A stretch of DNA of 64,000 bases, taken from assembly GCA_038212625.1 (NCBI GenBank), contig JBBQUH010000005.1:31483-95482 (forward strand), read 5' to 3'. The stretch is from Gemmatimonadales bacterium (GTDB lineage Bacteria > Gemmatimonadota > Gemmatimonadetes > Gemmatimonadales > Gemmatimonadaceae). The translations under genes and the position numbers were made by a program. The notes beneath the pieces are model-generated. The model had not been told where the DNA came from and did not search any database. It saw only the letters and a program-made list of their open reading frames with translations. Positions 14,641 to 34,202 of this stretch are shown piece after piece. The stretch's first letter is position 1. Every line of letters begins with the position of its first letter.

Positions 14641-14775
14641 GAGCTAAGAGCTCAGAGCTCAGAGCTCAGAGCTACAGCTGTTTCGCTCTTAGCTCTTAGC
14701 TCTTAGCTCTTAGCTCTTAGCTCTTAGCTCTTAGCTCTTAGCTCTTAGCTCTTAGCTCTTAGCTCTTAGCTCCTA
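14638..14775. repeat. Inverted heptamer tandem array 1
   Basis: 5 x T(G/A/C)AGAGC (14638-14672), central palindrome ACAGCTGT (14674-14681), 12 perfect GCTCTTA (14685-14768) plus GCTCCTA; spans stop codon to stop codon of two convergent genes. Confidence 0.97.
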
Positions 14776-17780: not shown

Positions 17781-17909
17781 GAGCGGGACTGAAGCGGAGA
17801 GGGGAACACTTTGCGTGTTCGGGAGGCATACTAACGTACGCCGACGCGCGGGCTCCTGTTGAGGGGTCGCCGCGCCCGGTCGAGGGATGGACGACCACAC
17901 GGAGCGGCC

Positions 17910-18344
17910 ATGCGTCGGAGACAAGACCGGATCACCCGTTGGAGCAGAGGTTGGGGCAGGAGGATATTCCCGCGACTCGCAGCCACCGCCAGCGTGGCGT
18001 GGTTCGTGGCGCTGGGAGGCTGTGGCAGCGACAACGGGACCGCCCCCCTGGGAGAGCCCTTCCTCTCCGGTCAGGTGACCTCGGTGGTGCCGTCAGGCAG
18101 CGCGGTGATCGTGCTGGTGGAACAGCGTCCGGGCGTCGTGGACGCCGGCGAGAAAGCGCTGGTCCGGGTTGACGACGTCACGGTCGTCCGCCTGCTCAAC
18201 GATCAGCCCGGCACCTATCGGTCGGTCAGCACCGGTCAGTGGGTCCGGGTGTGGTTCGAGGGTGCGGTCTCGGAGTCGTACCCTGTGCAGGGGCTCGCGG
18301 CGCGGGTCGTGATCGATTCACTTGGTGTTGGGCTTCGTCCGTAG
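17910..18344 (+). CDS. DUF3221/YobA-like lipoprotein
   Basis: Lipobox LGGC; GQWVRVWFEGAVSESYPVQG motif; GGAG upstream of ATG 17910. Confidence 0.65.
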   Translation: MRRRQDRITRWSRGWGRRIFPRLAATASVAWFVALGGCGSDNGTAPLGEPFLSGQVTSVVPSGSAVIVLVEQRPGVVDAGEKALVRVDDVTVVRLLNDQPGTYRSVSTGQWVRVWFEGAVSESYPVQGLAARVVIDSLGVGLRP

Positions 18345-18372
18345 TTCGTTCCTCTCTCTGCTTCCTTCCGCC

Positions 18373-19848
18373 ATGTCCCGCCCCCTCTCGCTGGTCGGCG
18401 TCCTTGCCGCCGCCCTCGTCGCCACCCCCCTCGTGTCGGCGCCGCTTCCCGCGCAGCCGCGCTTCAGCGCCCCAGGCGCGCCCACGTCCCTCACGCCGGA
18501 GCAGAAAGTGGCGCGGGCGATTTATCAGGAGCTCGTGGAGATCAACACGGTCGATTCCGTGGGCTCCGTGACCAAAGCTGCTGTCGCGATGGCGGCGCGA
18601 TTCCGCGCGGCCGGATTCGCCGAGTCGGACATTCACCTGGTGGGGCCGGCAAGCGCGCCTGAAAAACAGAATCTCGTGGTCCGCTATCGGGGACGGGGAC
18701 GCGGCAAGCCGATTCTGCTGCTCGCCCACCTCGACGTGGTCGCGGCACTGCGCGCGGATTGGCCGCGCGATCCGTTCGTACTCGTGGAGGAAAACGGTTA
18801 TTTCTTCGGCCGCGGAACGGCCGACGACAAGCCGATGGCCGCGATGCTGGTCGCCAACGTCCTGCGGTACAAGCAGGAAGGGTGGATCCCAGAGCGGGAT
18901 CTGATCGTGGCGCTCACCGCCGACGAAGAAGGGGGCGGCGCCAACGGCGTGGGCTGGCTCATCGCCAACCGCCGCGACCTCATCGATGCCGAGTACGCGA
19001 TCAACGAAGGCGGCGGCGGCACGTTGCAGGACGACAAGCCGCTGTTCCACTCCATTCAGGCGGCCGAGAAGCTCCCCACCAATTTCACGCTGACGGTCCG
19101 CAACACCGGCGGCCACTCGAGTGTCCCCCGCAAGGACAACGCGATTTATCAGTTGGCTAACGCCCTTTCGCGCATCGAGCGGCATGTATTTCCCGTGGCG
19201 CTCAACGACGTCTCGCGTCCCTTCTTCGAGCAGACGGCCAAGGTCGAGATGCCGTCATTGGCCGCGTCGATGCGCGCGATTGTGGCCAACCCCACCGACA
19301 CCGCCGCTGCCCGTGGGATCTCCACCGATCCGCGCTACGCGTCGATGCTGCGCACCAGCTGCGTCGCCACGCGCCTCGCGGCTGGACACGCCGACAACGC
19401 GTTGCCGCAGACGGCCACGGCCAACGTCAACTGCCGGATCGTACCCACCTCGAGCACGGAGGAAGTACTCGCGGTGCTACAGCGGGTGACGGCCGATTCG
19501 CTCGTGGTGGTGACGCTGAATGCCAGCTCGCAGAAGGAGAAGGGTGCCGCACCGCTGGCCATCAACCCGGCGCTGCTCGCGGCAACCACCGCGCTCACCA
19601 AGCAAATGTTCAATGGCGTACCGGTCATTCCCACCATGAGCACGGGCGCGACCGACGGGCGCTTCCTGCGCGCCGCCGGTATCGCCACGTACGGGGTGAG
19701 CGGAATTTTTTCTGCACCGGGCGAAACCAACGCACACGGGCGCGACGAGAAGCTGCGGGTGAAGTCGTTCTACGATGGACTCGACTTCCTGTATCAGCTC
19801 GTCAAGCAGGTGGCCGGACCAGTCACCGGGGCCAAGCCGATCTCCTGA
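18373..19848 (+). CDS. M20/M25/M40 family metallopeptidase, exported
   Basis: Signal peptide, LLAHLDVV, GRGTADDK, ADEE, STGATDG, NAHGRDE. Confidence 0.9.
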   Translation: MSRPLSLVGVLAAALVATPLVSAPLPAQPRFSAPGAPTSLTPEQKVARAIYQELVEINTVDSVGSVTKAAVAMAARFRAAGFAESDIHLVGPASAPEKQNLVVRYRGRGRGKPILLLAHLDVVAALRADWPRDPFVLVEENGYFFGRGTADDKPMAAMLVANVLRYKQEGWIPERDLIVALTADEEGGGANGVGWLIANRRDLIDAEYAINEGGGGTLQDDKPLFHSIQAAEKLPTNFTLTVRNTGGHSSVPRKDNAIYQLANALSRIERHVFPVALNDVSRPFFEQTAKVEMPSLAASMRAIVANPTDTAAARGISTDPRYASMLRTSCVATRLAAGHADNALPQTATANVNCRIVPTSSTEEVLAVLQRVTADSLVVVTLNASSQKEKGAAPLAINPALLAATTALTKQMFNGVPVIPTMSTGATDGRFLRAAGIATYGVSGIFSAPGETNAHGRDEKLRVKSFYDGLDFLYQLVKQVAGPVTGAKPIS

Positions 19849-20451
19849 CTACGACTTCATCCCGGGTTCACTATCGATCACGGCGCGTGCGATGTCTACC
19901 ATGCGCACTGAACGATCTTGGCTGCTTCGCTGCATGATGCGGTACGCTTCCTGCTCGCTGCTGCCGGTACGGCGCATGAGCAGCCCTTTCGCACGCTCGA
20001 TGAGCTTCCGCGCCTCGAGCTGCTCCTTGGCCTCCGCCGCCTCGCGACGGGCGGTGAGGAGTTCACGAGCGCGCAGCACCGCCATTCGCAGCGTGGCATC
20101 GAGCGTGGCGGGGGGCGTCGGCTTGGGGAGGAGCGCCACGGCGGTGCTCCGCAGCACGTCGGCCATAGAAAGGGTGAGCGACAGATCGCCGGTCACCAGC
20201 ACCACTGCGGTGCCCGGCAGCGCCAGCGCGATCTCTTCCGCCGCCTGCACACCGCTGGCCCCGGGCATATGCATGTCGAGCAGGACGGCATCGGGCGTGA
20301 ACTGCTGCGCCTTTTCAATGGCCTCGGTCCCGGACTCGACTTCGGCAACCACCATGTGACCCAGCACGCCGAGCAGGTCCACGAGGGTAGACCGCTCGAG
20401 GGCGTTGTCTTCGGCCACCAAAACGCGAATGGTGGAGGGCATGTCAGTCAT
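19849..20451 (-). CDS. ANTAR-domain response regulator (REC-ANTAR)
   Basis: VLVAED, LLDMHMP, LLPKP; C-terminal RKLIERAKGLLM...EQEAYRIMQRSSQDR. Confidence 0.9.
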   Translation of the reverse strand: MTDMPSTIRVLVAEDNALERSTLVDLLGVLGHMVVAEVESGTEAIEKAQQFTPDAVLLDMHMPGASGVQAAEEIALALPGTAVVLVTGDLSLTLSMADVLRSTAVALLPKPTPPATLDATLRMAVLRARELLTARREAAEAKEQLEARKLIERAKGLLMRRTGSSEQEAYRIMQRSSQDRSVRMVDIARAVIDSEPGMKS

Positions 20452-20456
20452 AAGCT

Positions 20457-22379
20457 TCACTCGTTGGAAGAGGCGGACGCAACGCGTCTCGCAATGTGAT
20501 CCTGCAATTCTACTACGCGCAACGGTTTTCCGAGGACGAAGTCCGCACCGCTCGTGTTTTCACTGCCCGCCACCGGCTCCCACCCGGAGATCACCCCCAC
20601 GCGGACCTCGGGCGTCTGTTCCCGACAATATCGCACGAGGTCCCACCCATCGCCGTCCGGTAGTCCGACATCGGTGAGCAGCAGGGTGTATGGTTCGCTC
20701 GGCGGCTGCGCGATCCGCTCCCGGGCCTCGGCGCAAGTGCCCACGGCGTCCACCGTGTGACCCGCACCCTGTAGAATCCGACGCAGCAACTCCCGTCCGC
20801 CCTCGTCGTCCTCGACCACCAGAATATGTTGCGGCGCCGCGTTGTCCGTGGCCGATGCTGGTACCGACGTCGACTCGTCGAGCGGCACGGTATCATGCGG
20901 AAATCGCAAGGTGACTTCCGTGCCGTCCCCGGGCATCGCACGAATGATGGCCGATCCTCGGTGCCGCCGCGCGATGCCATACACCTCAGCCAACCCAAGC
21001 CCAGCGCCCCGCGCCCCTTTCGTGGTAAAAAAGGGCTCGAACGCGCGCTCCCGCACCTCGTCGCTCATGCCGACCCCGGTATCGCGCACTGCCACACAGG
21101 CGTCGCCCTCGTCCACGAACGCACGCATCGTGAGCGTGCCGCCAGCAGGCATCGCGTCCACCGCATTCTGTACCAGATGGCGCAGCGCTTCCCGGATTTC
21201 CCCTGGGAGCCCGCGCGTCCGCACGGGTTCGTCCAGCGCGCGCAGCACGTGCACGATACCGCGCGCACCCGATCGTGTGAGACGCGTGGGCTCGGTGAGA
21301 TCGAGCACTTCAGCCGCCAGGACCGTCAGGTCGAGCGCCTCATCGCCGCCCGCGTGCACCGGCTCTTGTCGGATGAACCGCCCCACCCGCGATGCCAGGG
21401 CGGCACCCGTTTCCACCGCTTGCTGGATACGGGCGGCGTAGTCGCGCACGGCATCGGGCGACTCCGCATGATGCCGCAACAGGTACGCGGCCGACATGAT
21501 CGGGTTGAGCACGTTGTTCACCTCGTGCATGACGCCAGCCGCCAGCTGCCCCACCGCCGCGAAACGCCGACCGCGATCGGCCGCCTCGTACGAAGCCATC
21601 AGCGCCTGCGCGTCGGTAATATCCCGGTCCAGCAGTACCGCCCCACTGAGCATTCCCGCCGCGTCATAGATGGGGGCACTAAATGACTCCACGACCCGTC
21701 GTCTGCCGAGTCGCTGCACGTCGAGCCGTTCCCGCGTGACCGTGGCGCCAGAGAGCGCCTGTAAGCCCGGCGAGTCGAGAAAGGCCTGCGGACGCGCGGA
21801 CGCCGAATGCTGTGGCGCATCGCGCTGCCAGAGTTCGCGGAGCGTGGTTGGCTGGACCGGCGCATGCTCCGCTTGCGCGGCCCGATTCTGCCGCACGATC
21901 TGCCCGGTGACGTCTACGATCCGCAGCGAGGCGGGCGTCAGGTCGAGCAAGGCCTCCAGTTCGTGGGCTCGGGGCTGCGGGATGTCGCGCGGTGCGGACA
22001 CCGGACTCGCGTCGAGCACCGTGATCAGCAGCAACTCAGCGCCCACGGCCGCTGTACGAACCTCCCTTTGCGCTCCGGCGGCCCCACAGGGCACCGTCTG
22101 CGCGTGGGGGAGCGCGTCGGCAGCTGTCGCCTCGAGCAGCGAGACGGCCGTAGCACCCAGGGGCGACAACACCCGGTGCCACGACTGCGACGCGAGCGGC
22201 GCCTGATCATCGACCATCCACAACGCCCGCGCCTGCGTGTTTGCGGCACGAAGCGTCCCGTCGCGGTGGAAAAGCGCCGCCGCGTAAGGGAGAGCCTCGA
22301 TCAGCGCCGCCAATTCGCTGCCACCTGGCAACGGCTCCGACTTTGTAGAATTCGAGTTGCTGCGCGTGATGTCCGACAT
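20457..22379 (-). CDS. Hybrid sensor histidine kinase (PAS-like, HisKA, HATPase, REC)
   Basis: GVMHEVNN H-box, NAVDAM, DTGVGM, FFTTK..GAGLGL, C-terminal REC (ILVVEDD, LLTDVGLP); start uncertain. Confidence 0.9.
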   Translation of the reverse strand: MSDITRSNSNSTKSEPLPGGSELAALIEALPYAAALFHRDGTLRAANTQARALWMVDDQAPLASQSWHRVLSPLGATAVSLLEATAADALPHAQTVPCGAAGAQREVRTAAVGAELLLITVLDASPVSAPRDIPQPRAHELEALLDLTPASLRIVDVTGQIVRQNRAAQAEHAPVQPTTLRELWQRDAPQHSASARPQAFLDSPGLQALSGATVTRERLDVQRLGRRRVVESFSAPIYDAAGMLSGAVLLDRDITDAQALMASYEAADRGRRFAAVGQLAAGVMHEVNNVLNPIMSAAYLLRHHAESPDAVRDYAARIQQAVETGAALASRVGRFIRQEPVHAGGDEALDLTVLAAEVLDLTEPTRLTRSGARGIVHVLRALDEPVRTRGLPGEIREALRHLVQNAVDAMPAGGTLTMRAFVDEGDACVAVRDTGVGMSDEVRERAFEPFFTTKGARGAGLGLAEVYGIARRHRGSAIIRAMPGDGTEVTLRFPHDTVPLDESTSVPASATDNAAPQHILVVEDDEGGRELLRRILQGAGHTVDAVGTCAEARERIAQPPSEPYTLLLTDVGLPDGDGWDLVRYCREQTPEVRVGVISGWEPVAGSENTSGADFVLGKPLRVVELQDHIARRVASASSNE

Positions 22380-22470
22380 CCGTTCGGTCGTAGAGCACTG
22401 GGCACACCACCAAGTCACCGCATCGTCACTGGTTCGGTTGCTTCCGTCCACTCTCTGTTACGTTTTGTCC

Positions 22471-22476
22471 TATAAT
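22471..22476 (+). promoter_or_regulatory. Perfect -10 hexamer upstream of nhaP
   Basis: TATAAT about 58 bp before the nhaP ATG; no canonical -35 found. Confidence 0.45.
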
Positions 22477-22533
22477 GTTAACCTGATTCGGTCGTTTCGA
22501 CCAAACGAACATCCCGGTTTTTCCGAGCACGCG

Positions 22534-23838
22534 ATGACCCCCTTCGAACTCTTGGCGGCGCTCACCACGGTGACCGCCGCCTTCGCCTACGTGAACTACC
22601 GCTGGCTCCGCTTGCCCACCACGATCGGTCTGATGACGATCGCGCTGGTGGGCTCGCTCCTGCTCCTCGGCCTCGGACGCTCGGGCGTGCTGGATCTGGC
22701 GCCGCTGGTCACGTTTGTGAATGCGGTCGACTTCGACGCCACACTGCTCAATGGCATTCTCGGGGCCCTGCTCTTTGCGGGCGCGCTCCACGTCGACCTC
22801 GCCCAGCTCCGGGCCCAGCAGCTGCTGATCGGCCTTCTGAGCACGCTCGGCGTCGCGACCTCCACGCTATTGGTAGGTGGCGGCGTGTTCCTGATCACGG
22901 ACGCCATCAACGCGCCGCTGCCGCTGATCTGGTGCCTGGTGTTCGGCGCGCTGATTTCGCCGACCGACCCGATCGCGGTGGGCGCGATCCTGCGCACGCT
23001 GGGCGTGCCCAAGGATCTCGAAGCCACGATCACCGGCGAGTCGCTGTTCAACGACGGCGTGGGGGTGGTGATCTTCATCGTGCTGCTGGGTATCGCCGTC
23101 GGCGGAGGCACGTTCTCGATGGGGCACGTGGCGGAGCTGTTCGCGGTGGAAGCGATTGGTGGCTGTTTGTTTGGGGCTGCCGCTGGCTGGATCACCAATC
23201 GTTTGCTCGCACGCGTAGATGACTACCACGTGGAAATCCTGCTGACGCTGGCGTTGACCACCGGCGGCTACGTCCTCGCCAACACACTGCACCTCTCGGG
23301 GGCACTGGCGATGGTGGTGGCGGGTTTGATGGTTGGCAGTACGGGGCGCACGCAGGCAATGTCACTCCGTACGCAGGCTCGGCTCGATGACTTTTGGGAA
23401 CTCATCGACGAGTTCCTCAATGCCATCCTCTTTGTGGTGATCGGGATCGAAGTCGTCATCGTGGAGTTTACGAGCATGTCAGGGCTGCTCGGCGCCATTG
23501 CGATTCCGCTGGTCCTGCTTGCCCGCTGGATCAGCGTGAGCATTCCGCTCACGGTGCTCGCCCGGTGGCGCCCGATACCAGTTGGCGCCCGCCCGATCCT
23601 CACGTGGAGCGGCCTGCGCGGGGGGATCAGCGTGGCCCTCGCTCTGTCTCTGCCACTCTCGCCCTATCGCAATACCCTGGTCACGATGACCTACGTGGTG
23701 GTGTGCTTTTCAATTCTGGTGCAGGGACTCACGGTACAGCGCGTGGTTGGCAGGATCCTCGGTACCGGCAGCGGATCGAGCCGAGCCCCGGCTCATCCAG
23801 CGCCGGTGGGGAAAGCGAAAGGGACGCTGACCGCCTAG
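22534..23838 (+). CDS. nhaP: Na+/H+ antiporter, CPA1 (NhaP) family
   Basis: FGALISPTDPIAV, ITGESLFNDG, GLRGGISVALAL; multiple TM helices. Confidence 0.9.
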   Translation: MTPFELLAALTTVTAAFAYVNYRWLRLPTTIGLMTIALVGSLLLLGLGRSGVLDLAPLVTFVNAVDFDATLLNGILGALLFAGALHVDLAQLRAQQLLIGLLSTLGVATSTLLVGGGVFLITDAINAPLPLIWCLVFGALISPTDPIAVGAILRTLGVPKDLEATITGESLFNDGVGVVIFIVLLGIAVGGGTFSMGHVAELFAVEAIGGCLFGAAAGWITNRLLARVDDYHVEILLTLALTTGGYVLANTLHLSGALAMVVAGLMVGSTGRTQAMSLRTQARLDDFWELIDEFLNAILFVVIGIEVVIVEFTSMSGLLGAIAIPLVLLARWISVSIPLTVLARWRPIPVGARPILTWSGLRGGISVALALSLPLSPYRNTLVTMTYVVVCFSILVQGLTVQRVVGRILGTGSGSSRAPAHPAPVGKAKGTLTA

Positions 23839-23847
23839 TTTGGGGTG

Positions 23848-23958
23848 ATGCCGACTCCTTTTCGTACCACGCTGTGGCGCGTCCTGCTGGTTCAGGCGGT
23901 GACGCTGGCGCTGCTCTGGCTCCTGCAGTCTCGCTATACCGCCGACTTCCTCCGCTGA
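23848..23958 (+). CDS. 36-aa single-pass membrane protein preceding the sodium:solute symporter
   Basis: Below ORF-track cutoff. MPTPFRTTLWRVLLVQAVTLALLWLLQSRYTADFLR*; fills the gap between nhaP and the symporter, ending 6 bp before its ATG. Confidence 0.65.
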   Translation: MPTPFRTTLWRVLLVQAVTLALLWLLQSRYTADFLR

Positions 23959-23964
23959 GCCGCG

Positions 23965-25653
23965 ATGCATTGGATCAACTGGGCCATCGTTGCCACCTAT
24001 CTCACGGTGGTGGTCGTGGATGGACTGCGGCGTACGCGCGGCACGACGAATATCGAAGGGTACTTTCTCGCCAATCGCGGTCTTCCGTGGTGGGCGGTAG
24101 GGCTGAGCGTGATGGCCACGCAGCTTTCAGCCGTCACGCTGATCGGCACCACGGGGCAAGGGGCCACCGACGGCCTGCGCTTCGTGCAGTTCTACTTCGG
24201 CCTGCCGATTGCGATGGTGATCCTCGGGGTCACCATTGTACCCTTCCTGCACGGCGCGAAGGTTTTTACGGCGTACGAATTTCTCGAGAAGCGGTTTGAC
24301 GCGAAGACCCGTTCGCTCACCAGTTTTCTTTTTCTTCTGTCGCGCGGGATGTCCTGCGGCACCATCATCGCCGCCCCCAGTGTGGTGCTCTCGGCGATCT
24401 TCGGCTGGGACCTCACCGTCTGCGTGGCGCTGATCGGGATTCCCACCGTGATCTATACGGTGCTCGGTGGCGTGCAGGCCGTCACGTGGGCCGACGTGAA
24501 ACAAATGTTCATCATCGTCTTCGCTCTCAGTGCGATCGTGGTGGTGCTCATTCTCCGCATGCCGGTGCCGCTCGATGATGCGTTCCGCATTGCCGGCGCT
24601 ACGGGCCGTATGCAAGTGTTCGACTTCTCATTCGATTTGTCGAAGACGTACACGTTCTGGTCAGGCATTCTCGGCGGGACGTTCTTGATGCTGTCGTACT
24701 TCGGCACGGACCAGAGTCAGGTGCAACGCTACCTCTCGGCGAAGTCGATCGATGAGGCGCGGAGCTCGCTGCTGATGAGCGCGTTCTGGAAGATCCCGCT
24801 GCAGGCGCTGATCCTGATCATCGGTGTGCTGGTGTTCCTGTTCTTCCTGTTTACGCCGGCCCCGATGCTTTACAACCCGGAGCACGACGCGAAGGTGCAG
24901 CGCGCCGAGCCCGTAGCGTACGCCGAGCTGCAATCCCGTTATGGCGCCTCGATCGCTACACGCGAGGCGGCGGCACGCGACGCTTCGGCCGCGCAGCGCG
25001 CCGGCGACCGCGCGACCGCGCAGACCGCCCTGCTGTCCTTCCGCGGCGCCGACTCTACGGTGAACGCGGTGCGCACCGAAGCACTCGCTGCGGCGGCGCG
25101 GGTCACCGGTGAATCCTCGCGCGACGTGAACTACATCATTCCGCGGTTTGTGCTCGATCACCTGCCACTCGGCTTTGCCGGCGTCTTCCTGGCCGCCGTG
25201 CTCGCGGCGGCGATGTCGAGTATCGCCGCCGAACTGAATTCGCTGTCCACCGCTACGGTGATCGACTTCTACCAGCGCTGGTTCAAGCCTGACGCCAGCG
25301 ACGCGCACTATCTCACGGTGTCGAAAACGGCAACGGCGATCTGGGGGGTATTCGCCTGCGTGGTGGCGACCTACGCCGCTACGCTGGGCTCGCTCATCGA
25401 AGTGGTGAACCGGTTCGGATCGTTTTTCTATGGTTCGATCCTTGGGGTTTTCATGCTCGCCATGATTCCACGCACACGCGCACCCGGCGCGTTTGTGGGC
25501 CTGCTGGCTGGAATGGCCACGGTGGCGGCGGTCTCGATTCTTGCGCCGAGTGTGAGCTTCCTTTGGCACAACGTGATCGGCGCCATGGCCGTGGTCGTCG
25601 TGGGTTCCCTGCTCAGCCTTGGCGGTCCGACGACGGCGCCCGTGCGCCGGTAG
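23965..25653 (+). CDS. Sodium:solute symporter (SSS/SLC5) family transporter
   Basis: YFLANR.LPWWAVGLSVMATQLSA, YEFLEKRF, GTDQSQVQRYL, AAAMSS. Confidence 0.93.
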   Translation: MHWINWAIVATYLTVVVVDGLRRTRGTTNIEGYFLANRGLPWWAVGLSVMATQLSAVTLIGTTGQGATDGLRFVQFYFGLPIAMVILGVTIVPFLHGAKVFTAYEFLEKRFDAKTRSLTSFLFLLSRGMSCGTIIAAPSVVLSAIFGWDLTVCVALIGIPTVIYTVLGGVQAVTWADVKQMFIIVFALSAIVVVLILRMPVPLDDAFRIAGATGRMQVFDFSFDLSKTYTFWSGILGGTFLMLSYFGTDQSQVQRYLSAKSIDEARSSLLMSAFWKIPLQALILIIGVLVFLFFLFTPAPMLYNPEHDAKVQRAEPVAYAELQSRYGASIATREAAARDASAAQRAGDRATAQTALLSFRGADSTVNAVRTEALAAAARVTGESSRDVNYIIPRFVLDHLPLGFAGVFLAAVLAAAMSSIAAELNSLSTATVIDFYQRWFKPDASDAHYLTVSKTATAIWGVFACVVATYAATLGSLIEVVNRFGSFFYGSILGVFMLAMIPRTRAPGAFVGLLAGMATVAAVSILAPSVSFLWHNVIGAMAVVVVGSLLSLGGPTTAPVRR

Positions 25654-25655
25654 CA

Positions 25656-28355
25656 CTACCTTTTCGGCGGTACCACCGGCGCCGGCGCGTTGATCAGATT
25701 GGCGAGAATGCGTGCCGCCCCCGGTACGCCGTTCGGTAATTGACGGAAGAGCGCTAACGTGACGTACACGTAGCGTCCCTTGCCCACCGGTGCCACCAGC
25801 AGCGCGCCTTGCTGTTCCGGCTCATCCGGATCGTTCATCGCCAGCAGCGACGTATACCGTTTGTCAATCACACTCGGCATGTACGTGGCACGCTCCTGCA
25901 CCCAATCTGCCCAGTCGGGAGCACCGATTCGGTTGGGAGTGGTGAGCAGTGGATGCGTGGGCTGCAGCACCTTCACCGGCGCATTCTCCATGGTCACGCG
26001 CGCCGCACGCGGCGCCCACTGCAGCGGATACGGCGTCACCTTGAAGTTGTTCATGTTCTGCGCACCATACTGCACCACCAGCGTCCCGCCGTTATTGGCG
26101 TACTGCAATAGGCGCGGGTTCTGTCGAACCAGCTCATCACTCGACTCGTACGCACGCGGCCCAAGCACAATGGCCGTGAAGCGCGAGAGATTCGTGGTGC
26201 CGAGCATCGCCGGTTCGATCGGCTCCACCGCGATATTGAGCTGCTTGAGAGCCTCGAGGCCGAGGTCTCCCGACCCCTTCACGTAGCCCACGAGCGCGTG
26301 CGTTGGAATCTTCACGTTTACCGCCGACAGATACATGCCCGACACGCCGTACAGCCGCTGCGTGGTGATGTGGTCGTACGCGAATGTGTAGTAGCCCGAG
26401 GTGCTTATCGAACCCTCGTGCAGCGCCATCGCGCCCAGTTGATGTCGCCCGGGGGCCAGCGTGCCGCGAAGTCGGAACACCACCGTAGCGCGCCCTCCAG
26501 GCCCCAACGTCCGCGTGCGTTCGACGGAGTCAGCCACCAGCCCCTTGGGAAGAAGCAGCTGCACGATCACCCGCGCCTCCTCAGGATACGCCGACTGAAT
26601 CGCCACACGAAGCTCGCGATCTACCGGCACGCCAGCCCGGATGTACTCTACGACATTCTCGAGGCCAATCGTTATTCCGGGGACCACTGCCACGGGAACC
26701 TGCTGATCACCTTTGATCGGGTCGGCGAAACGATTCACGACCGGTACGGTCACCGTAACCGGCACACCCGCAATGGTCAGATCGGCATAGGCCAACACGG
26801 CGGTGCGATTCTCTCGCTCTTGTTCATCCCGCGAGTCAACCGCCGCGCGGAACCAGTCGTTTCCATCACGACCGTTCACGCGCCACCAGGTCCACGTAGG
26901 CTCGTCCGCCACGGCGAATCGTGTTGCCACCACGGCACTATCCGGCGCCACCGACGCCCCGACAACCGCCGCCGCCAAGACCGCCGTGTCCGCCGTGCGA
27001 CGCGCGTATGCCGCGGCCACGGTCACGTCACTGATACCGCGATTGTACACCGTCATGGTCACGGGCAGTGAATCATCGACCGCGTTCTTTACCGGGTCGC
27101 GAAGCGGGAACGTCGCACGCGGCGCGGTGGCTTCCACGGCAACCCCCGCCGCTAACACCAACGCTCGCTCGGCGCGCGAGATCGACAACGTCAGCGCATC
27201 GTACAAAGGCGCCGAGGCGACGCGTGTGCCGGGCGGTATCCGACGCATGCGCGGGGGTATGCCGTCTCTTAAAACCAGGAGGGCGGGCGGCTCTTGCCCC
27301 AACGAGTCACGCACACGACGCAGTTGGCTTACCACGCGCGCCAGCGGTGCCACGATCGGCGACGGATCCTGCGCACGATAGGATGCACGCGCCTGCGCCA
27401 CGGCCGCCAAGGCTGAATCGAGCACGGGCTGCATCGCGACCGGCGTCGCCGCGCGCAGCGGTACCCATGTGGTGTCTACGCCGTCGAACAGATCGCGTTC
27501 CATGCGCACATCGGATGGCCCGACACGCGATGCTTCGCGCGACAGATAGCCCCAGATTGCCCCTTTGCGCTGCAGCACGCCAAAACCCTGCGACTTGTGT
27601 TGCGACCGACTCTCCGCCGCGATCTCGTAGTAGCTCCGCCCCAGCAGCGCGTCGTACTCCCCTGTGTTCATGCGTAACGTGGCGCTGTCCGGCAGCTGTC
27701 GCGCGCTGCGGTAGAACTTCTGCGGCGTCCATGGCAGACCGAATCCCGCCACCGGGAATCGCACCGTATCACCGGCCAACTCGTAGGCCTCACGTGCCAG
27801 CATCCCCGACACCTGATGATGTCCGTGGCCGTCACGCGGTGTTCCGCTGAAGAAGCCCACCATGACATGAGGACGGAAGGCGCGAACCACGCGGATCACA
27901 TCGCCAAGAATCGAATCCTTGGGCCAGTGCAGATACGTCTCCTCGGCGTTCTTGCTGAATCCGAAGTCGTACGCACGTGTGAAGTACTGCCGCCCGCCAT
28001 CGATGCGGCGGGCCGAGAGGAGTTCCTGCGTGCGAATCGCACCGAGTGCTTCGCCTAATTCGTTGCCGATGAGATTCTGCCCACCGTCGCCGCGTGTCAG
28101 CGAGAGATAGGCGGTCTCCACATGGCGCCCGCGGGCGAGCCACGCGATGATCGGTGTGTCTTCGTCGTCGGGGTGCGCAGCAATCGTGAGGACACGCCCA
28201 GTGGTCCCGATGCCCGCCAAGGCAGATCCGAGCGCTGCCGCCCCACGCTCCGGTGTCACGCCCTGCGCCCGTAACACCGTGCCTCCAGCGAGAAGCGCCG
28301 CGGCGAAAGCCGCGGCGCTCGTCATCCAGAGGGATCGGCGCGGACGCACCGTCAC
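25656..28355 (-). CDS. PIG-L/LmbE family deacetylase, exported, with NEW3-like and C-terminal domains
   Basis: IAAHPDDED, SLTRGDGGQN, RTQEL, HGHH, SQHKSQGFG; GTG 28355 overlaps sucA stop (GTGA). Confidence 0.88.
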   Translation of the reverse strand: MTVRPRRSLWMTSAAAFAAALLAGGTVLRAQGVTPERGAAALGSALAGIGTTGRVLTIAAHPDDEDTPIIAWLARGRHVETAYLSLTRGDGGQNLIGNELGEALGAIRTQELLSARRIDGGRQYFTRAYDFGFSKNAEETYLHWPKDSILGDVIRVVRAFRPHVMVGFFSGTPRDGHGHHQVSGMLAREAYELAGDTVRFPVAGFGLPWTPQKFYRSARQLPDSATLRMNTGEYDALLGRSYYEIAAESRSQHKSQGFGVLQRKGAIWGYLSREASRVGPSDVRMERDLFDGVDTTWVPLRAATPVAMQPVLDSALAAVAQARASYRAQDPSPIVAPLARVVSQLRRVRDSLGQEPPALLVLRDGIPPRMRRIPPGTRVASAPLYDALTLSISRAERALVLAAGVAVEATAPRATFPLRDPVKNAVDDSLPVTMTVYNRGISDVTVAAAYARRTADTAVLAAAVVGASVAPDSAVVATRFAVADEPTWTWWRVNGRDGNDWFRAAVDSRDEQERENRTAVLAYADLTIAGVPVTVTVPVVNRFADPIKGDQQVPVAVVPGITIGLENVVEYIRAGVPVDRELRVAIQSAYPEEARVIVQLLLPKGLVADSVERTRTLGPGGRATVVFRLRGTLAPGRHQLGAMALHEGSISTSGYYTFAYDHITTQRLYGVSGMYLSAVNVKIPTHALVGYVKGSGDLGLEALKQLNIAVEPIEPAMLGTTNLSRFTAIVLGPRAYESSDELVRQNPRLLQYANNGGTLVVQYGAQNMNNFKVTPYPLQWAPRAARVTMENAPVKVLQPTHPLLTTPNRIGAPDWADWVQERATYMPSVIDKRYTSLLAMNDPDEPEQQGALLVAPVGKGRYVYVTLALFRQLPNGVPGAARILANLINAPAPVVPPKR

Positions 28356-31126
28356 TGCGCCACCTTGGCGAGCGATCGCTCTTCCGGCACTTCGCCGGTG
28401 TCCATCACGACGGTGATGATGCGGGCCTGCTCCGCCTGATGCGCATCGGCATACCCTTCTGCGGGACTGGCCCGCTCGGGACGCCCCACATACCGCACGC
28501 CCACGGCCGCTCCGGCCGAAGCGCGCAAACGCGGCTGCACATAGGTCCACGCGCCCTGATTGCGCGGCTCTTCCTGCGCCCACACCACCTGCTCGATGGC
28601 CGGATAGAGGTCCATGATGCGCACGATATCCTCATGCGGCCACGGATACAGCTCCTCCACCCGCACCAGCGCCACCTGCGGATTCCGCGTGGCCGACAGT
28701 GCCATGTCGTAGTACAGCTTGCCCGTACAGAACACGATGCGCCGTACCTCGTCGCGATGCTGCGACGCGAGCGGATCGTCGATCACCGACTGGAAACCAC
28801 CCTGCGACAGCTCCCCGAGGTGCGATGCCGCCTGCGGCAGACGGAGCAGCGACTTGGGTTGCATACACACCAACGGTCGACGATTCGCGCGCAGCGCCTG
28901 ACGGCGCAGCAGATGGAAATACTGCGCCGGTGTGCTGCAATAGGCCACCGTCATGTTGCCCTCGGCACACAGTTGCAAAAACCGCTCAAGCCGTGCGCTC
29001 GAATGTTCGGGGCCCTGTCCCTCGTAGCCGTGCGGAAGCAGCAGCACGACGCCGCTGTCCTGACCCCACTTGGCGCGATCGGCTGCAATGAATTGATCGA
29101 TGATCGGTTGCGCCACATTGACGAAGTCGCCGAATTGCGCTTCCCACAGGGTGAGCGTATCCGTGGCCACCGTACTGAAGCCATATTCGAACGCGAGCAC
29201 GGCCGTTTCGGACAGCGCCGAGTTGTAGATCTCGAACGCCCCCTTCGCGCCGGGCAGGTGAGCCAGCGGTGCGTACTTCCGCCCCGTGTTGGTGTCGCTG
29301 AGCACTGCGTGCCGATGTGAGAACGTGCCGCGTTCGGCGTCCTGACCCGTGAGACGGATCGACATCCCGTCAAGCAGCAACGAACCGAACGCCAGCGCCT
29401 CAGCGTGTCCCCACTCGATACCGCCCTGCTCACCCATCGCCTCGCGTCGACGCTCGAGCTGCTTGGCGAGACGCGGGTTGGGCGAGAAATCCGCCGGCCA
29501 GCTCAAGAGCGCGTCATTAACGAATTGCAGACGTTCCGCAGGCAGCGCCGTGATCAACACCTTCGGCGCCGGCGTCGGCTCGGCCGGCCACGGCGCATGC
29601 TTCTCGCTGCTCAGGAGCGATTCCTTGAACCGTGCATGAATTGCGGTGTAGTTGGCGGTCACCTGCTGTTCCATCGCCGTGGCCTCGTCAGGCGAGAGCA
29701 CGCCTTCTTTCGCCAGCCGCGCGGCCCACACCTGCGGCACCGTGGGGTGCTGGCGGATGAGGGTGTAGCGCGCCGGCTGTGTGTACAGCGGCTCGTCGCC
29801 TTCGTTGTGGCCGTGCCGGCGATAGCCGACCAGATCAATCAGCACGTCCTTCTTGAACGTGGCGCGATACGCGCATGCCAGACGCACCGCCGTTATGCAG
29901 GCCTGCGCATCGTCAGCGTTGACGTGGATGATCGGGATCTCATACCCTTTCGCGAGATCGGACGAGTAGTGCGTGGAGCGGGCGTCGGAAGGATCAGTGG
30001 TGAACCCCACTTGGTTGTTGACGATGATGTGAATCGTCCCGCCGGTCCGGTGCGCATTAAGCCGGGAGAGGTTGAGCGTCTCAGCCACAATGCCTTCACC
30101 GGGGAACGCCGCATCACCGTGAATAGCCACGGGCACCACGGCGAGTTCATCGCGCTCCCCCGTTACGCCACCTACGCGCTGCAATGCGCGCACCACGCCC
30201 TCGATCACCGGATTGACCACTTCGAGGTGCGACGGGTTCGGCACCAGTCGCAATTTTACCGACGCGCCGTCCACGTTGCGCGAGCCGACATACCCCATGT
30301 GATACTTCACGTCGCCGGTCGCGTTTTCATCCGCGTGATCGTGACGTCCCTCGAACTCGGCGAACAGCGTTTCGTACGGCTTGCCCATCACGTTGGTGAG
30401 CACATTGAGACGGCCGCGATGTGCCATGCCGATCACAATCTCCTTCGCGCCCGAGCGACCGGACTCGCTGATCACTTCATCAAGCATCGGGATGAGCGTA
30501 TCGGTGCCCTCCACCGAGAAGCGCTTGTAGCCTTGATACACCCGACCGAGGAAGCGCTCGAGCCCGTCCACCTCATTGAGGCGGTGCAGCACCTGCTTCT
30601 TCTCCTCCGGCGTGAGTGCCCGCGTGATCAAGCCATCACGAAACGCGGTGCGAAACCATTCGCGCTCGTCGTCGGCCTCAAGGTGCCACACCTCGTACCC
30701 GATACGCCCTGCATAGATCTTGCGCTTGCGCGCGATGACGTCGGCTGCGGTGGCGAAGCGATCGTCGCCGAGCACGGCACCGGGAATCGCCTGCAGGTCG
30801 GCCTCGGTGATGCCGTGGAACTCGAGACTCAGATCGTCGGCACCGGGCGGCGGCGCGCCGAGCGGATCCAGCTGCACCGCGTAATGGCCGTAGTTGCGGA
30901 TCGCCTGTTGAAGGGACGCGGCCGCCGCAACCTTCTTCAGGAAGGCCACGTCCATTGCGGGGGCGCCCGCTGCGGTGGGCGACGCCGGGGACGCACCGAA
31001 CAGTGACTCCGCCATGCGGAAGTACTGCCGCCACGTCTCGTCGACGCTCGCGGGATCCTGACGATAACGCTCGAACTGCTCGGCAAAAATGCCGTCGTTG
31101 AAAACGCTGGTGATGGCTGCGGTCAT
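28352..31126 (-). CDS. sucA: 2-oxoglutarate dehydrogenase E1 component
   Basis: KRFSVEG, GMAHRGRLN, GDVKYH, NPSHLE, HGDAAFPGEG, RRHGHNE, WEAQFGDF, HSSARLERFLQ; start ATG 31126. Confidence 0.96.
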   Translation of the reverse strand: MTAAITSVFNDGIFAEQFERYRQDPASVDETWRQYFRMAESLFGASPASPTAAGAPAMDVAFLKKVAAAASLQQAIRNYGHYAVQLDPLGAPPPGADDLSLEFHGITEADLQAIPGAVLGDDRFATAADVIARKRKIYAGRIGYEVWHLEADDEREWFRTAFRDGLITRALTPEEKKQVLHRLNEVDGLERFLGRVYQGYKRFSVEGTDTLIPMLDEVISESGRSGAKEIVIGMAHRGRLNVLTNVMGKPYETLFAEFEGRHDHADENATGDVKYHMGYVGSRNVDGASVKLRLVPNPSHLEVVNPVIEGVVRALQRVGGVTGERDELAVVPVAIHGDAAFPGEGIVAETLNLSRLNAHRTGGTIHIIVNNQVGFTTDPSDARSTHYSSDLAKGYEIPIIHVNADDAQACITAVRLACAYRATFKKDVLIDLVGYRRHGHNEGDEPLYTQPARYTLIRQHPTVPQVWAARLAKEGVLSPDEATAMEQQVTANYTAIHARFKESLLSSEKHAPWPAEPTPAPKVLITALPAERLQFVNDALLSWPADFSPNPRLAKQLERRREAMGEQGGIEWGHAEALAFGSLLLDGMSIRLTGQDAERGTFSHRHAVLSDTNTGRKYAPLAHLPGAKGAFEIYNSALSETAVLAFEYGFSTVATDTLTLWEAQFGDFVNVAQPIIDQFIAADRAKWGQDSGVVLLLPHGYEGQGPEHSSARLERFLQLCAEGNMTVAYCSTPAQYFHLLRRQALRANRRPLVCMQPKSLLRLPQAASHLGELSQGGFQSVIDDPLASQHRDEVRRIVFCTGKLYYDMALSATRNPQVALVRVEELYPWPHEDIVRIMDLYPAIEQVVWAQEEPRNQGAWTYVQPRLRASAGAAVGVRYVGRPERASPAEGYADAHQAEQARIITVVMDTGEVPEERSLAKVAQ

Positions 31127-31199
31127 ACCCAGTGAATCTAGCGTGGTACAGCGCAAGGGACAGGCGCAACACGGCGCCGACGACGTGTTCCGCAGGTGC

Positions 31200-32465
31200 T
31201 CAGGAGATGGCGGGGAGCACCAGCGTGAAATTTGAGCCGTCGCCAGGGCGCGACACCACTTCAATGCGCCCGCCAAGCAGCGTGGCCAGGCGTCGGGAAA
31301 TGTAGAGGCCGAGCCCCGTGCCACGGTGGCGCCGTGCGGGGACATCCTCAAGTTGCGAGAACGGTCGGAAGAGGCGCTGCAGATTGGAGGCCTCGATACC
31401 GATCCCGGAGTCGCGCACCGCGACGCGCACGGTGGCCCGTCCATCAGGCCCCGGGGAACCACGGGAGACACGCACGGTCACCCCACCCACTTCGGTGAAC
31501 TTGACGGCATTCTGGCAGAGGTTGAGCAGGATCTGCCGCACCTTGGCCTCATCCGTGTGCAGCGCCGGGAGCCCGGGCTCGAGGTCGATGGCGAAGTCAA
31601 TGCCCTTCTCTCGCGCCAGCGGGTCCATGAACGGCAGCAGGGAGTCGATCAACTCTTCTATCCGCACCGGCGCCATGCGGGCGGTGAGGCGATCGGCCTC
31701 GAGCGAGGCATAGGTGAGGATGTCCTCGATGAGCGCCCCCAAATGCCGTCCCACGGTACGCAGGCGCATGATCACGTCTTGCTGCTGCGGGGTCAGCGGC
31801 CCGAGAATCTGATCCTCCAAGAGCTCCCCGTACCCCTCGAGCGCGGCTAGCGGCGTGCGCAGTTCGTGCGACAACGTCGCCAGCAGGCTCGTCTTGGCGG
31901 CATCCGCCGACTGCGTTTCTTCGAGCAGCCGCGCCTTCCAGAGCGCCAGCGCCGCGAGATCCGCCATCACACTGAGCCGCTCTTCGTCGGCGTCGTCAAA
32001 GGGCGGATGCCCTTGATCGCGAGCGATCGAGAGGACGCCCAGCAGCTGCTGGTTGGCCACCAGCGGCAGGAGGAGAATCGGGCCGAATCCGAGCCGTGGC
32101 AGGAGTTCCGCAAAAAACGGTGAGCTCTCCCTGGGCGACCGGATAGCGATCGTGCGCCGCTCCTCGGCGACCCGTCCGGTCAGCGTGCCCGCCAACGGAA
32201 AGCGTGTTCCGCGCAGCTCGCCCGTTTTCCCGAAGACGGCAATATACACGCCGGTATCCGCATGCAATTCGGCCACTGCCGCGCCACTTGCGCGACCGCG
32301 CACCGTGGAAAGACGACAGAGCGTTTCAAGGACCTTCTGCGAATTCGTCTCCGCCGCCAGCGCGCGCGCCACTTGACGAATGCTGCCCAGCTCCTCGGTC
32401 CGCCGATAGTCGGAGAAGAGGAGATCGTCGGTGGGGGCGAGCGGGTAGTCGGCGGCGTCGGTCAT
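31200..32465 (-). CDS. GAF-domain sensor histidine kinase
   Basis: GAF region, [33 protein letters not shown]. Confidence 0.9.
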
Positions 32466-32502
32466 GTGGGAACACTGCCACATCGCCGACCGCTTGGCGA
32501 GC

Positions 32503-32658
<156 letters not shown>

Positions 32659-32661
<3 letters not shown>

Positions 32662-32826
32662 GAGCTAAGAGCTAAGAGCTAAGAGCTAAAAGTTAAGAGC
32701 TAAGAGCTAAGAGCCAAGAGCTAAGTGCTAAGTGCTAAGTGCTCTCAGCTCTCAGCTTTGAGCTCTGAGCTCTGAGCTCTTCGCTCTTAGCTCTGAGCTC
32801 TGAGCTCTTAGCTCTTAGCTCTTCGC
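32659..32826. repeat. Inverted heptamer tandem array 2
   Basis: 12 TAAGAGC-like units (32659-32742) followed in the same 7-bp register by 12 GCTCTTA-like units (32741-32824); between convergent DUF2256 and anti-sigma genes. Confidence 0.97.
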
Positions 32827-33543
32827 CACCCCCACCACGCGCTCGCGCCCGCTCACCACTGCCCCGCCCGGTGCTTCCACGGTCAGCACGAACATGATGG
32901 CCTCGCCGACGGGTAGGCGGGCGGCGAACGGGATCACCACCTCGGTGGCGCCGGCGGGGATGTCGAACACTCCGCCATCCACGGGATACCGACTATCGCG
33001 CGCCTTGTCGAAGATCCAGAGCTGATACTGTGAGCGCTTCGCGTCGTTGGGCGCGAGTCCCACCACCCGCATGACCCCGCGTTGCGCCGCGGCACTCCAC
33101 ACCACGTCACCGCCGATCATGGGTGACACGTCGTCCGTGGACGAGGTCCAGGCCAGCTTGAGAAGCGCGCGATCGTTCTGCAGCAGTGAGTCGCGGAGCG
33201 CACCCGCCGAGCGTGCGGGGACTTGCGGTGTCGCTGCGAGGGGAGCGGGAGGCGACGTCTCGCGCGCGCGGCGCCCCGGTGTCCCCACCCACAGCCCGAG
33301 CACTGCCGCGGCGGCGAGCCAGCCACTCCACAGTCGCCACGACGCATCAGGTGGGCGCCGTCGTGCCGTCGCCAGTGACGCGTCGGCGCGTAGCAACCGT
33401 TCACCGGCGGCGGCGATTTGCGCCGCGAGCGCTGCGGGTAGCGCACCGTGCTCCGGATCGGCGGTCGACGACGATAGCGCCGCCGTGAGTTCTCCCACCA
33501 GCAACTCGTGACCGGTCGGGGTGGCTCGATCTGGTGCCTTCAT
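32815..33543 (-). CDS. Anti-sigma factor, RskA family
   Basis: Single TM (WLAAAAVLGLWVG), then YQLWI..PVDGGVF...FVLTVEAPGG; ATGA-coupled to the ECF sigma. Confidence 0.85.
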   Translation of the reverse strand: MKAPDRATPTGHELLVGELTAALSSSTADPEHGALPAALAAQIAAAGERLLRADASLATARRRPPDASWRLWSGWLAAAAVLGLWVGTPGRRARETSPPAPLAATPQVPARSAGALRDSLLQNDRALLKLAWTSSTDDVSPMIGGDVVWSAAAQRGVMRVVGLAPNDAKRSQYQLWIFDKARDSRYPVDGGVFDIPAGATEVVIPFAARLPVGEAIMFVLTVEAPGGAVVSGRERVVGVAKS

Positions 33544-34202
33544 CCGTCCTGCTCCTCCGACAACCGTGGTGTCGCCTGCAACAGCGTCGCCCGCGCCCGC
33601 TGCAGACCGCGACGAATATGTGACTTGACCGTACCCAGCGGCGTGCCGGTGGCCTCTGCGATTTCCTCGTGAGTATGCCCATGCAGCAGCGACAATTCCA
33701 ACATGGTGCGCTGCGCCGCGGGCAACGCCTGCACCGCGGCGCGCGCACGGACGACCCGATCGGCCTGATCGAGATCAGGCTCCTGCTCGTCGATCACATC
33801 GTAGTCGTCGGGCAACGGCTCGTACGTGATCCCGCGTTGACTCCGCCGCAGCCGATCGATGAGCCGGCGCCTGGCTACCATCGCCACCCAACCCGCTTCC
33901 GTGGCACGCGCACCGTCAAACCGCGCCGCACTCCTCCAGAGGTCAACGAAGATCTCCTGCGCGGCATCCTCGGCGTCATGGCCATCGGGCACCCAGCGAC
34001 GCACCAGCGACCACACGAGCGCTCCGTAGCGCGCCACACACTCCCGGACCGCCGACTCGTCACCGGCCGCAATCCGCGGCAGGAGAGGGACGGGTACGAG
34101 AGTCACGGACACCGCCTTTGCAGACGACGCCACGCGCGCGCGGTCCGGCGGGACCAACGCGAGATGCGCACGCACAGCGCCATGGGCGTCATTCGAAGTC
34201 AT
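33540..34202 (-). CDS. ECF RNA polymerase sigma factor (SigK-like)
   Basis: GDESAVRECVARYG, DAEDAAQEIFVDLW, region 4 THEEIAEATGTPLGTVKSHIRRGL. Confidence 0.92.
   Translation of the reverse strand: MTSNDAHGAVRAHLALVPPDRARVASSAKAVSVTLVPVPLLPRIAAGDESAVRECVARYGALVWSLVRRWVPDGHDAEDAAQEIFVDLWRSAARFDGARATEAGWVAMVARRRLIDRLRRSQRGITYEPLPDDYDVIDEQEPDLDQADRVVRARAAVQALPAAQRTMLELSLLHGHTHEEIAEATGTPLGTVKSHIRRGLQRARATLLQATPRLSEEQDG

Follow-up and report, generated by a model that had tools for sequence, protein, structure and literature searches.

Heptamers are over-represented among bacterial simple-sequence repeats (SSRs), and we know of no explanation for the origin and function of the dispersed heptamer repeats that have been noted in bacteria since 1990. 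In the cyanobacterial STRR heptanucleotide repeats of Mazel (1990) and the long SSRs of Mrazek (2007), a heptamer is reportedly amplified in tandem at many intergenic loci of one lineage. REP, REPIN and BIME sequences are short, high-copy extragenic palindromes at gene ends, which give rise to RNA hairpins and are mobilised by the RAYT transposase. Here we describe an inverted array of TAAGAGC-type heptamers at positions 32659-32826 of a 64,000-nt stretch of DNA (the window; 31,483-95,482 of contig JBBQUH010000005.1, forward strand) from Gemmatimonadales bacterium GCA_038212625.1, together with the family of such arrays in the draft genome of this soil-type bacterium (4.09 Mb, 150 contigs, 64.6% G+C, 94%-complete).

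The inverted (GGGAATC)n pairs of Xanthomonas are the nearest published analogue. Rehm et al. (2015) described about 180-185 dispersed intergenic arrays per genome with a variable number of units, and 70-75 convergent pairs with stem-loop potential; the arrays are strongly biased towards positions next to or overlapping the stop codon of the upstream open reading frame (ORF), are not conserved between related species, are not linked to known transposable elements, and coincide with transcript starts or stops more often than control sites do (PMC4692102). The TAAGAGC arrays resemble them in being dispersed, lineage-restricted, convergent heptamer pairs of variable unit number at stop codons: all 39 pairs in the studied genome run left arm then right arm, and 50 of 78 ORF-facing sides contain the stop of the neighbouring ORF. 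They also have the features of a dispersed heptanucleotide SSR, namely a 7-nt unit at many intergenic loci, variable in number and not conserved among relatives. The sequence-only reading had singled out the array as its best candidate for an undescribed element; since convergent heptamer pairs at stop codons had already been published for Xanthomonas (PMC4692102), this description cannot stand, and the TAAGAGC family is a further member, from another phylum, of the published heptamer-repeat class. It nevertheless differs from the Xanthomonas arrays in that the TAAGAGC unit, unlike GGGAATC, cannot form a G-quadruplex, in that pairs are the rule (39 pairs versus 10 internal solo arrays), and in that the spacer to the ORF is about 0, compared with an average of 28 nt in Xanthomonas (PMC4692102). 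The conserved centre, the GC-skewed flanks and the copy bearing a PF05635 gene that we report below are not described in the Xanthomonas study.

The other described repeats are more distant. STRR arrays are described as direct, and inverted pairing, a conserved centre and abutment on stop codons lie outside their definition. The TAAGAGC arrays are like REP and BIME sequences in being gene-end palindromes that would form RNA hairpins, which makes 3' hairpin formation and stabilisation of mRNA a plausible analogy; they differ in that the studied genome has no Y1 (RAYT) transposase and the arrays no GTAG/CGTC head. Neither a GTAG nor a CGTC tag is visible in the array sequences, and in place of a fixed 20-40 bp palindrome the arms have a variable number of heptamers in tandem. 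Described by MacGregor (2015) from Beggiatoaceae, Cyanobacteria and Bacteroidetes, the TAACTGA repeats occupy about 170 intergenic sites, mostly as 2-6 copies just upstream of start codons and with only one inverted case; they are patchily distributed across phyla, their spreading mechanism is not known, and a role in translational regulation was proposed (PMC4679880). The GCTCTTA unit is likewise found in many phyla, but TAACTGA arrays are short, close to start codons and mostly direct, whereas the TAAGAGC family is inverted.

An inverted heptamer array and its genomic family

The array at 32659-32826 is real and lies far above chance expectation: a two-unit probe (at most 2 mismatches) gave 36 matches in the window versus 0.10 expected, all of them confined to this array and to a sister array at 14638-14775. 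Its 24 units share a single 7-nt register, the first 12 being TAAGAGC-like and the last 12 GCTCTTA-like. The left arm (32659-32742, + strand) reads TAGGAGC, TAAGAGC x3, TAAAAGT, TAAGAGC x3, CAAGAGC, TAAGTGC x3. The second half, kept in the register of the left arm, continues to 32826 as TCTCAGC x2, TTTGAGC, TCTGAGC x2, TCTTCGC, TCTTAGC, TCTGAGC x2, TCTTAGC x2, TCTTCGC; phased two bases earlier, it yields 12 units of the form GCTCTNA (right arm, 32741-32824, + strand; 32743-32826 in the register first used). The GC at 32741-32742 is common to both arms, and there is no loop. Tandem Repeats Finder reports the same two arms as period-7 arrays at 32662-32743 and 32741-32822, each with 11.7 copies and an 89-90% match. 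Both neighbouring genes end inside the array. The DUF2256 gene (32464-32661, + strand, 65 aa; Pfam PF10013, E 1.7e-21) has its TAG stop at 32659-32661, where unit 1 begins, and the anti-sigma-K (RskA-like) gene (32815-33543, - strand; Pfam RskA_C, PF10099) ends A-K-S-stop, where the K, S and TAA codons come from the outermost two units of the right arm. Thus the sequence and the ORFs agree with the sequence-only reading, which had described a 12+12 inverted array running in register from the DUF2256 TAG into the anti-sigma K-S-stop, and every run of variant units that it listed is present.

The hairpin potential that had been proposed for the array is also borne out. Pairing is best about a dyad axis between 32741 and 32742, with 66 Watson-Crick pairs, 3 G-T pairs and 14 mismatches, of 83; registers slipped by 7 nt still give 61-62 Watson-Crick pairs, nearly equal to the best. 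Stable RNA folds are predicted on both strands, at -116.9 kcal/mol (z -8.7) for the plus strand and -119.5 kcal/mol (z -9.6) for the minus strand. A search of window positions 14000-34000 with the Rfam covariance models gave no match at the gathering threshold. The units are contiguous, with no spacers of the kind found in CRISPR arrays.

The sister array (14638-14775, + strand; probe and Tandem Repeats Finder), 18 kb away, belongs to the same family and is asymmetric: about 5 units stand to the left of the centre AGCTACAGCTGTTTC and about 13 to its right. It is bordered on one side by a gene for a Tat-signal protein and on the other by a convergent gene of the PmbA/TldD family, and its terminal units hold both stops, the TGA of the Tat-signal ORF (in unit 1) and the TAG of the PmbA/TldD-family ORF.

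These two copies are part of a much larger set, as expected from the claim that they represent a dispersed family of palindromic microsatellites: the draft genome carries 56 TAAGAGC-family arrays at about 52 loci, which settles whether only two copies exist and accounts for 91 of the genome's 97 period-7 tandem repeats. There are 35 pairs with a short centre, 4 split pairs, 10 internal solo arrays and 3 arrays truncated by contig ends, and the arms are made of 3-19 tandem heptamers. The polarity is (TAAGAGC)n-centre-(GCTCTTA)m in 39/39 pairs; the opposite arm order, which in principle is equally palindromic, was found in 0/39 pairs of this genome. In the phase anchored on AGCT, the consensus centre is AGCT-TAC-NGCN-GTA-GCT, that is, two degenerate units flanking a tetranucleotide, and since this tetranucleotide is not self-complementary the two orientations of a centre can be told apart. 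The centre TTACTGCTGTA is found at C12:36626 and C22:24620, while its exact reverse complement is found at C22:26419. Centre variants TTACYGC and TACAGC are frequent among the loci, and the centre is 13-14 nt long in 15 of the 35 paired loci. Because the polarity and the related centres are common to the copies, independent origins are unlikely; polarity, related centres in both orientations and a common gradient of variants from inner to outer units argue that the copies of the family share a founder.

Three further repeats or hairpins were seen in contact with family members. A short (GCGCAGA)n array, built from a different heptamer, adjoins the left arm of an element at C7:7391-7420; a terminator-type G/C-rich hairpin lies within an array centre at C64:2214-2287 (GGGGGGTGGAGAG...CTTTCCTCCCCCC); and another G/C-rich hairpin of terminator type (CCCCCCCGAGTGCCTCGGGGGGGGG) stands directly beside a left arm at C55:16361-16390.

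Our preferred reading, to which we give a probability of roughly 55%, is that the array is a copy of a lineage-specific, founder-derived palindromic heptamer element that evolves by slippage and is only incidentally a 3' RNA hairpin. Each element has a short conserved centre and two tandem-heptamer arms, TAAGAGC on the left and GCTCTTA on the right, and the arms gain, lose and duplicate units independently and fast, as replication slippage predicts; slippage is helped by the fact that pairing is nearly as good in every register shifted by 7 nt. At the DUF2256/anti-sigma locus the element would have replaced a spacer of about 40 nt together with the last few codons of both genes. The array would then be transcribed as the common 3' end of both convergent mRNAs, and the transcript would fold into an imperfect hairpin of about 80 bp. 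Judging from the predicted folds and from the analogy with other gene-end palindromes, such a hairpin would most likely act as a 3' barrier, a transcript-end structure or an RNase III site, and this activity would be the by-product of a selfish or neutral repeat, not that of a selected terminator.

The distribution of the arrays was compared with that in relatives and in other phyla. TAAGAGC-family arrays were found in 0 of 40 related genomes searched, one of which shows a few weak matches. The 2-oxoglutarate dehydrogenase of the studied genome is 84-85% identical to that of same-genus genomes and 63% identical to that of a metagenome-assembled genome (MAG) labelled Gemmatimonadaceae. The comparison of filled and empty orthologous gaps that had been suggested could be made in one distant relative (G041, 58% protein identity), where the site is empty: a 40-nt non-repeat spacer separates the convergent anti-sigma and DUF2256 genes, and both C-termini are longer, ending ...LAKSGG in the anti-sigma protein and ...RCRMGKGTAASA in DUF2256. 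More than 117 stretches of species genomes from many phyla contain exact (GCTCTTA)3, mostly Acidobacteriota, with further matches in Gemmatimonadales MAGs, Cyanobacteria, Bacteroidota, Omnitrophota, Planctomycetota, gamma-proteobacteria and Paenibacillus. Several of the genomes bearing (GCTCTTA)3 have dozens of arrays, some in the opposite arm order, and sibling units such as GCTTTTA and GCTGTTA often stand beside GCTCTTA.

Arm turnover and gene ends

The behaviour of the arms was followed by assigning their units with an AGCT-anchored parser and by comparing mirrored units at the variable position, which is A, C or G in the left arm and T, G or C in the right arm. Mirrored units were complementary in 85 of 181 cases, compared with a fraction of 0.485 ± 0.027 in shuffled arms (P 0.74), and no covariation between arms emerged when an offset of one unit was allowed (P 0.19). 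The matched or compensatory changes that a conserved structure would leave, and whose absence had been named in advance as evidence against the structural reading, are thus not seen. In both arms, C and G variants are concentrated within three units of the centre, and the outer units are nearly pure. The lengths of the left and right arms are negatively correlated (Spearman -0.43, P 0.01), so that the symmetric 12+12 array at 32659-32826 is an exception in its family, which includes solo arms and strongly asymmetric pairs, often with 4 versus 15 units.

A nearly identical strain shows how fast the arms change. The Joint Genome Institute (JGI) metagenome contig Ga0105045_10001694 is 98.28% identical to window positions 19666-32687 over 13 kb, and at the orthologous site it reads TAAGAGC x2, TCAGAGC x3, the centre TGACTGC TCACTGC, and then right-arm units. 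The DUF2256/anti-sigma site thus has 5 left units and a 14-nt centre (GAC-TGCT-CAC) in that strain versus 12 left units and no loop in the studied genome, and the DUF2256 stop is TAA in the former and TAG in the latter. The TGCT-anchored unit, single at the centre in the 98.3%-identical strain, is present three times in the studied genome, which fits duplication of a mutated unit and upholds the earlier proposal that the runs of variants arose by local duplication. Logan contigs from four Sequence Read Archive (SRA) runs encode identical flanking proteins; one of them (L150) has an identical anti-sigma protein and a different order of units, and the six that were examined all end within arrays. 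Since arrays are found at the same sites in the JGI contig and in the Logan contigs of four SRA runs, they are not an assembly artefact; they do break short-read assemblies, as several draft contigs and all six Logan contigs end within them.

Gene contexts were obtained with a crude caller that relies on G+C at third codon positions (86% of the genome called as coding), so that the percentages are approximate, and ten loci were inspected by eye. The arrays fill whole intergenic gaps and abut ORFs with virtually zero spacer. An in-phase stop of the array ends the ORF on 50 of 78 ORF-facing sides, at offsets of 0, 7, 14 and 21 nt into the array in 15, 16, 14 and 5 cases, and a further 15 ORFs stop 1-11 nt ahead of the array. 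All three reading frames enter the arrays about equally. Because the arrays abut genes and hold stops in every frame, an ORF ends on the first in-frame TAA, TAG or TGA that it meets; the anchoring to stop codons that the sequence-only reading had seen is therefore apparent only, and the placement of stop codons is a consequence of array position, not its cause.

Such stops could also be expected if the arms were two independent (TAAGAGC)n tails that each grew from the stop codon of the adjoining gene and made a palindrome only incidentally. Uniform polarity would then follow automatically, the arms would be independent and their lengths negatively correlated, and gene 3' ends are where the ten internal solo arrays sit. 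Against this stand pairs in tandem and divergent contexts, located 4-40 nt upstream of start codons, in which one or both arms face a gene start: the pair at C13:57704 lies between argC and argB, 10 nt from the argB start; that at C8:92456 lies upstream of atpA; another precedes by 9 nt an ORF judged RecO-like by eye from its translation; an arm or arms of the pair at C64:2187 face a gene start; and the divergent pair at C22:33681 lies 4 and 32 nt from two start codons. These pairs exclude arms that are mere tails from their own stop codons, and the centres, which are common to different loci and include exact reverse complements, are not the locus-specific spacer remnants that two independent tails would leave. 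We consider this explanation quite unlikely.

Another explanation takes the array to be a selected bidirectional terminator or mRNA-stabilising hairpin, comparable to REP and BIME sequences and needed by convergent genes. Convergent gaps are indeed enriched about two-fold (19 of 48 classifiable loci, 40%, versus 18.5% genome-wide), the hairpins predicted on both strands are very stable, and transcripts tend to start or stop at the Xanthomonas arrays (PMC4692102). However, a T-tract is missing throughout, with 0 of 32 paired loci showing TTTT within 15 nt past the right arm or AAAA before the left arm; no compensatory change is seen in arms that often have 4 versus 15 units; and solo arms exist. 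Moreover, the arrays are hypervariable between 98%-identical strains, are absent from the related genomes searched (the orthologous site in G041 is empty), and are also found directly upstream of start codons. Selection for such a function is in our view unlikely.

It had further been suggested that the array binds protein in phase or presents densely packed AGCT (AluI-type) sites for methylation or as decoys. In favour of this, AGCT or GCT recurs at every 7 bp, and three units make two helical turns. Outside the arrays AGCT is not avoided (observed/expected ratio 0.92), and the arrays hold 756 sites compared with 11,046 elsewhere, or about 6% of the roughly 11,800 in the genome. The number of units is also unconstrained and changes between strains, and we attach a very low probability to this proposal.

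Flanks, split arms and PF05635 genes

The sequence immediately outside the arrays is strongly skewed. At the array under study, the 40 nt at 32619-32658 (+ strand), inside the coding end of DUF2256, hold 19 G and 5 C, and the mirror flank at 32827-32866 holds 25 C and 7 G on the plus strand and is G-rich on the sense strand of the anti-sigma gene. Across the family, the final 20 nt of flank, read toward the array, have 45.5% G and 15.9% C, compared with 34% and 32% at all gene 3' ends (P 6e-32); the excess of G over C climbs from 0 at -50 nt to +0.62 over the last 10 nt, and GGGG runs are present in 53% of flanks versus 14% of the background. The skew is +0.42 for genes running toward the array (n=54) and +0.48 for genes running away from it (n=13), with a background of 0.00; because it is equal for both gene orientations, it follows the polarity of the element, not the coding strand. 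It may reflect a target preference or else a local mutational or selective effect. The idea that the flanks are older, degenerate heptamers was rejected, since they keep the lag-3 periodicity of coding sequence and have none at lag 7. Nor do they show signs of extending the palindrome or of insertion into a pre-existing hairpin, as complementarity is 0.334 within loci versus 0.318 between loci (P 0.30).

In the split pairs the arms enclose 0.5-1.5 kb of unrelated DNA: an IS630-family element, an island with an AAA_16 gene, a PF05635 gene, and 681 bp without an ORF. The IS630-family element (C19:14195-15448; transposase gene with DDE_3 and HTH domains) is the sole insertion sequence seen at an array; it has split the array by entering one heptamer unit at a TA, and neither of its ends (TTACTCTGGCCAC... 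and ...GGCCGTATTAA) bears any relation to the heptamer, which does not form its terminal repeats as it would in a miniature transposable element with inverted repeats (MITE). The AT-rich island of about 1.5 kb between the arms at C60:218-1974 encodes a 427-aa AAA_16 ATPase with a weak MarR-like C-terminus, and its appearance is that of foreign DNA that was captured in the array centre or inserted there. A shared cargo was considered and rejected, as the inserts are all unique and mutually unrelated; for the same reason, array centres may simply be insertion hot spots.

The insert at C58:5090-5785 is a PF05635 gene (about 121 aa) between 16 left units and 15 right units; in the same region, at C58:2553-2708, a paralogous upstream gene carries a gene-less array. 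We take PF05635 to be the family of the proteins encoded in 23S rRNA intervening sequences and of Avd, the reverse transcriptase (RT) cofactor of diversity-generating retroelements, and to our knowledge Avd is its only characterised member. The gene-bearing copy resembles the 23S rRNA intervening sequences that bear an ORF, in that a PF05635 gene lies within long inverted repeats, from which a stem of the RNase III type would form. It differs in lying outside an rRNA gene and in having a stem of tandem heptamers, and most copies, including that at 32659-32826, which has neither gene nor loop, are gene-less.

A similar arrangement recurs around PF05635 genes elsewhere: across 32 other genomes, most of these genes are enclosed by inverted arrays of this sort. 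Among the 19 same-genus copies for which both flanks are available, about half lie between locus-specific inverted repeats built from tandem units of 6-8 nt or 13-22 nt. Of 29 PF05635 loci in six other array-bearing genomes, about 20 are flanked on both sides, at a distance of no more than about 150 nt, by inverted arrays of period 7 or 8, and the flanking unit differs at each copy. At locus L170 this unit is TAAGAGC, and locus L180 has the order GCTCTTA-gene-TAAGAGC, matching the gene-less arrays of its own genome (L059). Such brackets were noted at loci L130-L149 and L157-L186, examples being GGGCTGT x17...CAGCCCG, GGGGATC...CCCCGAT and GATAATG x20...TTATCCA x24. Many of the bracketed loci lie at contig ends, which suggests that these arrays break assemblies. 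A literature search on PF05635 returned no paper that ties the family to such repeats, and one on heptamer dimer strings returned only one unrelated mouse paper.

These arrangements suggest that the gene-less hairpins may derive from inverted-array cassettes enclosing a PF05635 gene. In its broadest form, the proposal would be that inverted heptamer or octamer arrays and PF05635 genes make up a widespread, undescribed element of several phyla, with a unit specific to each copy, and that the roughly 50 gene-less TAAGAGC hairpins are its non-autonomous derivatives; we put this forward tentatively, as a doubtful but serious possibility. With regard to the gene expected to co-occur with the arrays, two of the candidates first named, a REP-associated nuclease (Y1/RAYT) and an RT, gave no match in the assembly; PF05635 may be such a gene.

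PF05635 genes and G-rich flanks also bear on an explanation in which breaks leave G-rich 3' ends, a telomerase-like or Avd-assisted polymerase extends them with (TAAGAGC)n, and the two extended ends are then joined. Such templated addition predicts strict polarity, independent arm lengths and solo arms, the capture of foreign DNA such as the IS630-family element, the AAA_16 ATPase island and the PF05635 gene, and G-rich, primer-like flanks for either gene orientation; PF05635 as the family of Avd, an RT cofactor, would fit. On the other hand, the genome has no RT domain, random end-joining would not give conserved centres, and the concentration of variant units near the centre and of pure units near the flanks is not predicted. 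We regard it as very improbable.

Several observations weigh against the founder-derived element as well. No target-site duplication was detected, the longest direct repeat of the flanks averaging 2.91 nt within loci versus 2.85 nt between loci, and the 94%-complete assembly gave no match to the Y1/RAYT transposase (PF01797), for which control genomes do match, and no RT domain match (PF00078). Given that target-site duplications, T-tracts, a Y1/RAYT transposase, a matching insertion sequence and spacers are all lacking, the arrays are not REP/REPIN sequences, canonical MITEs, intrinsic terminators or CRISPR arrays. No clean filled-versus-empty pair was found between close strains, and copying is therefore deduced only from the centres and the polarity that the loci have in common. 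As solo and strongly asymmetric arms demonstrate, an array can persist without a hairpin, the proposed role as an RNA hairpin draws on predicted folding and analogy only, and the G>C skew of the flanks (about 40 nt, +0.42 to +0.48) is not predicted by the favoured model. As for a link with PF05635, its genes are present, often at contig ends, in 29 of 31 same-genus genomes, which are without the TAAGAGC heptamer, and a TAAGAGC array surrounds only one of the two PF05635 genes in the studied genome.

Significance for the genome and the repeat class

What is particular to the TAAGAGC family among heptamer repeats is the near-obligate pairing, the conserved centre, the zero spacer to the ORF, the skewed flanks and the gene-bearing sister copy. 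The studied genome is an unusually clean case, with one family, strict polarity, a conserved centre and turnover that can be measured between near-identical strains. If the proposed link with PF05635 were true, the TAAGAGC hairpins would relate to a PF05635 element as MITEs do to insertion sequences, and the spread of that element, like the changes it makes to neighbouring DNA, among them the G-rich, C-poor flanks, would require none of the known transposases. For the organism, the arrays provide dozens of genes with their stop codons and come within a few bases of start codons, and they offer concrete loci for the study of transcript termination and processing, of the tolerance of long near-perfect palindromes, and of the involvement of PF05635.

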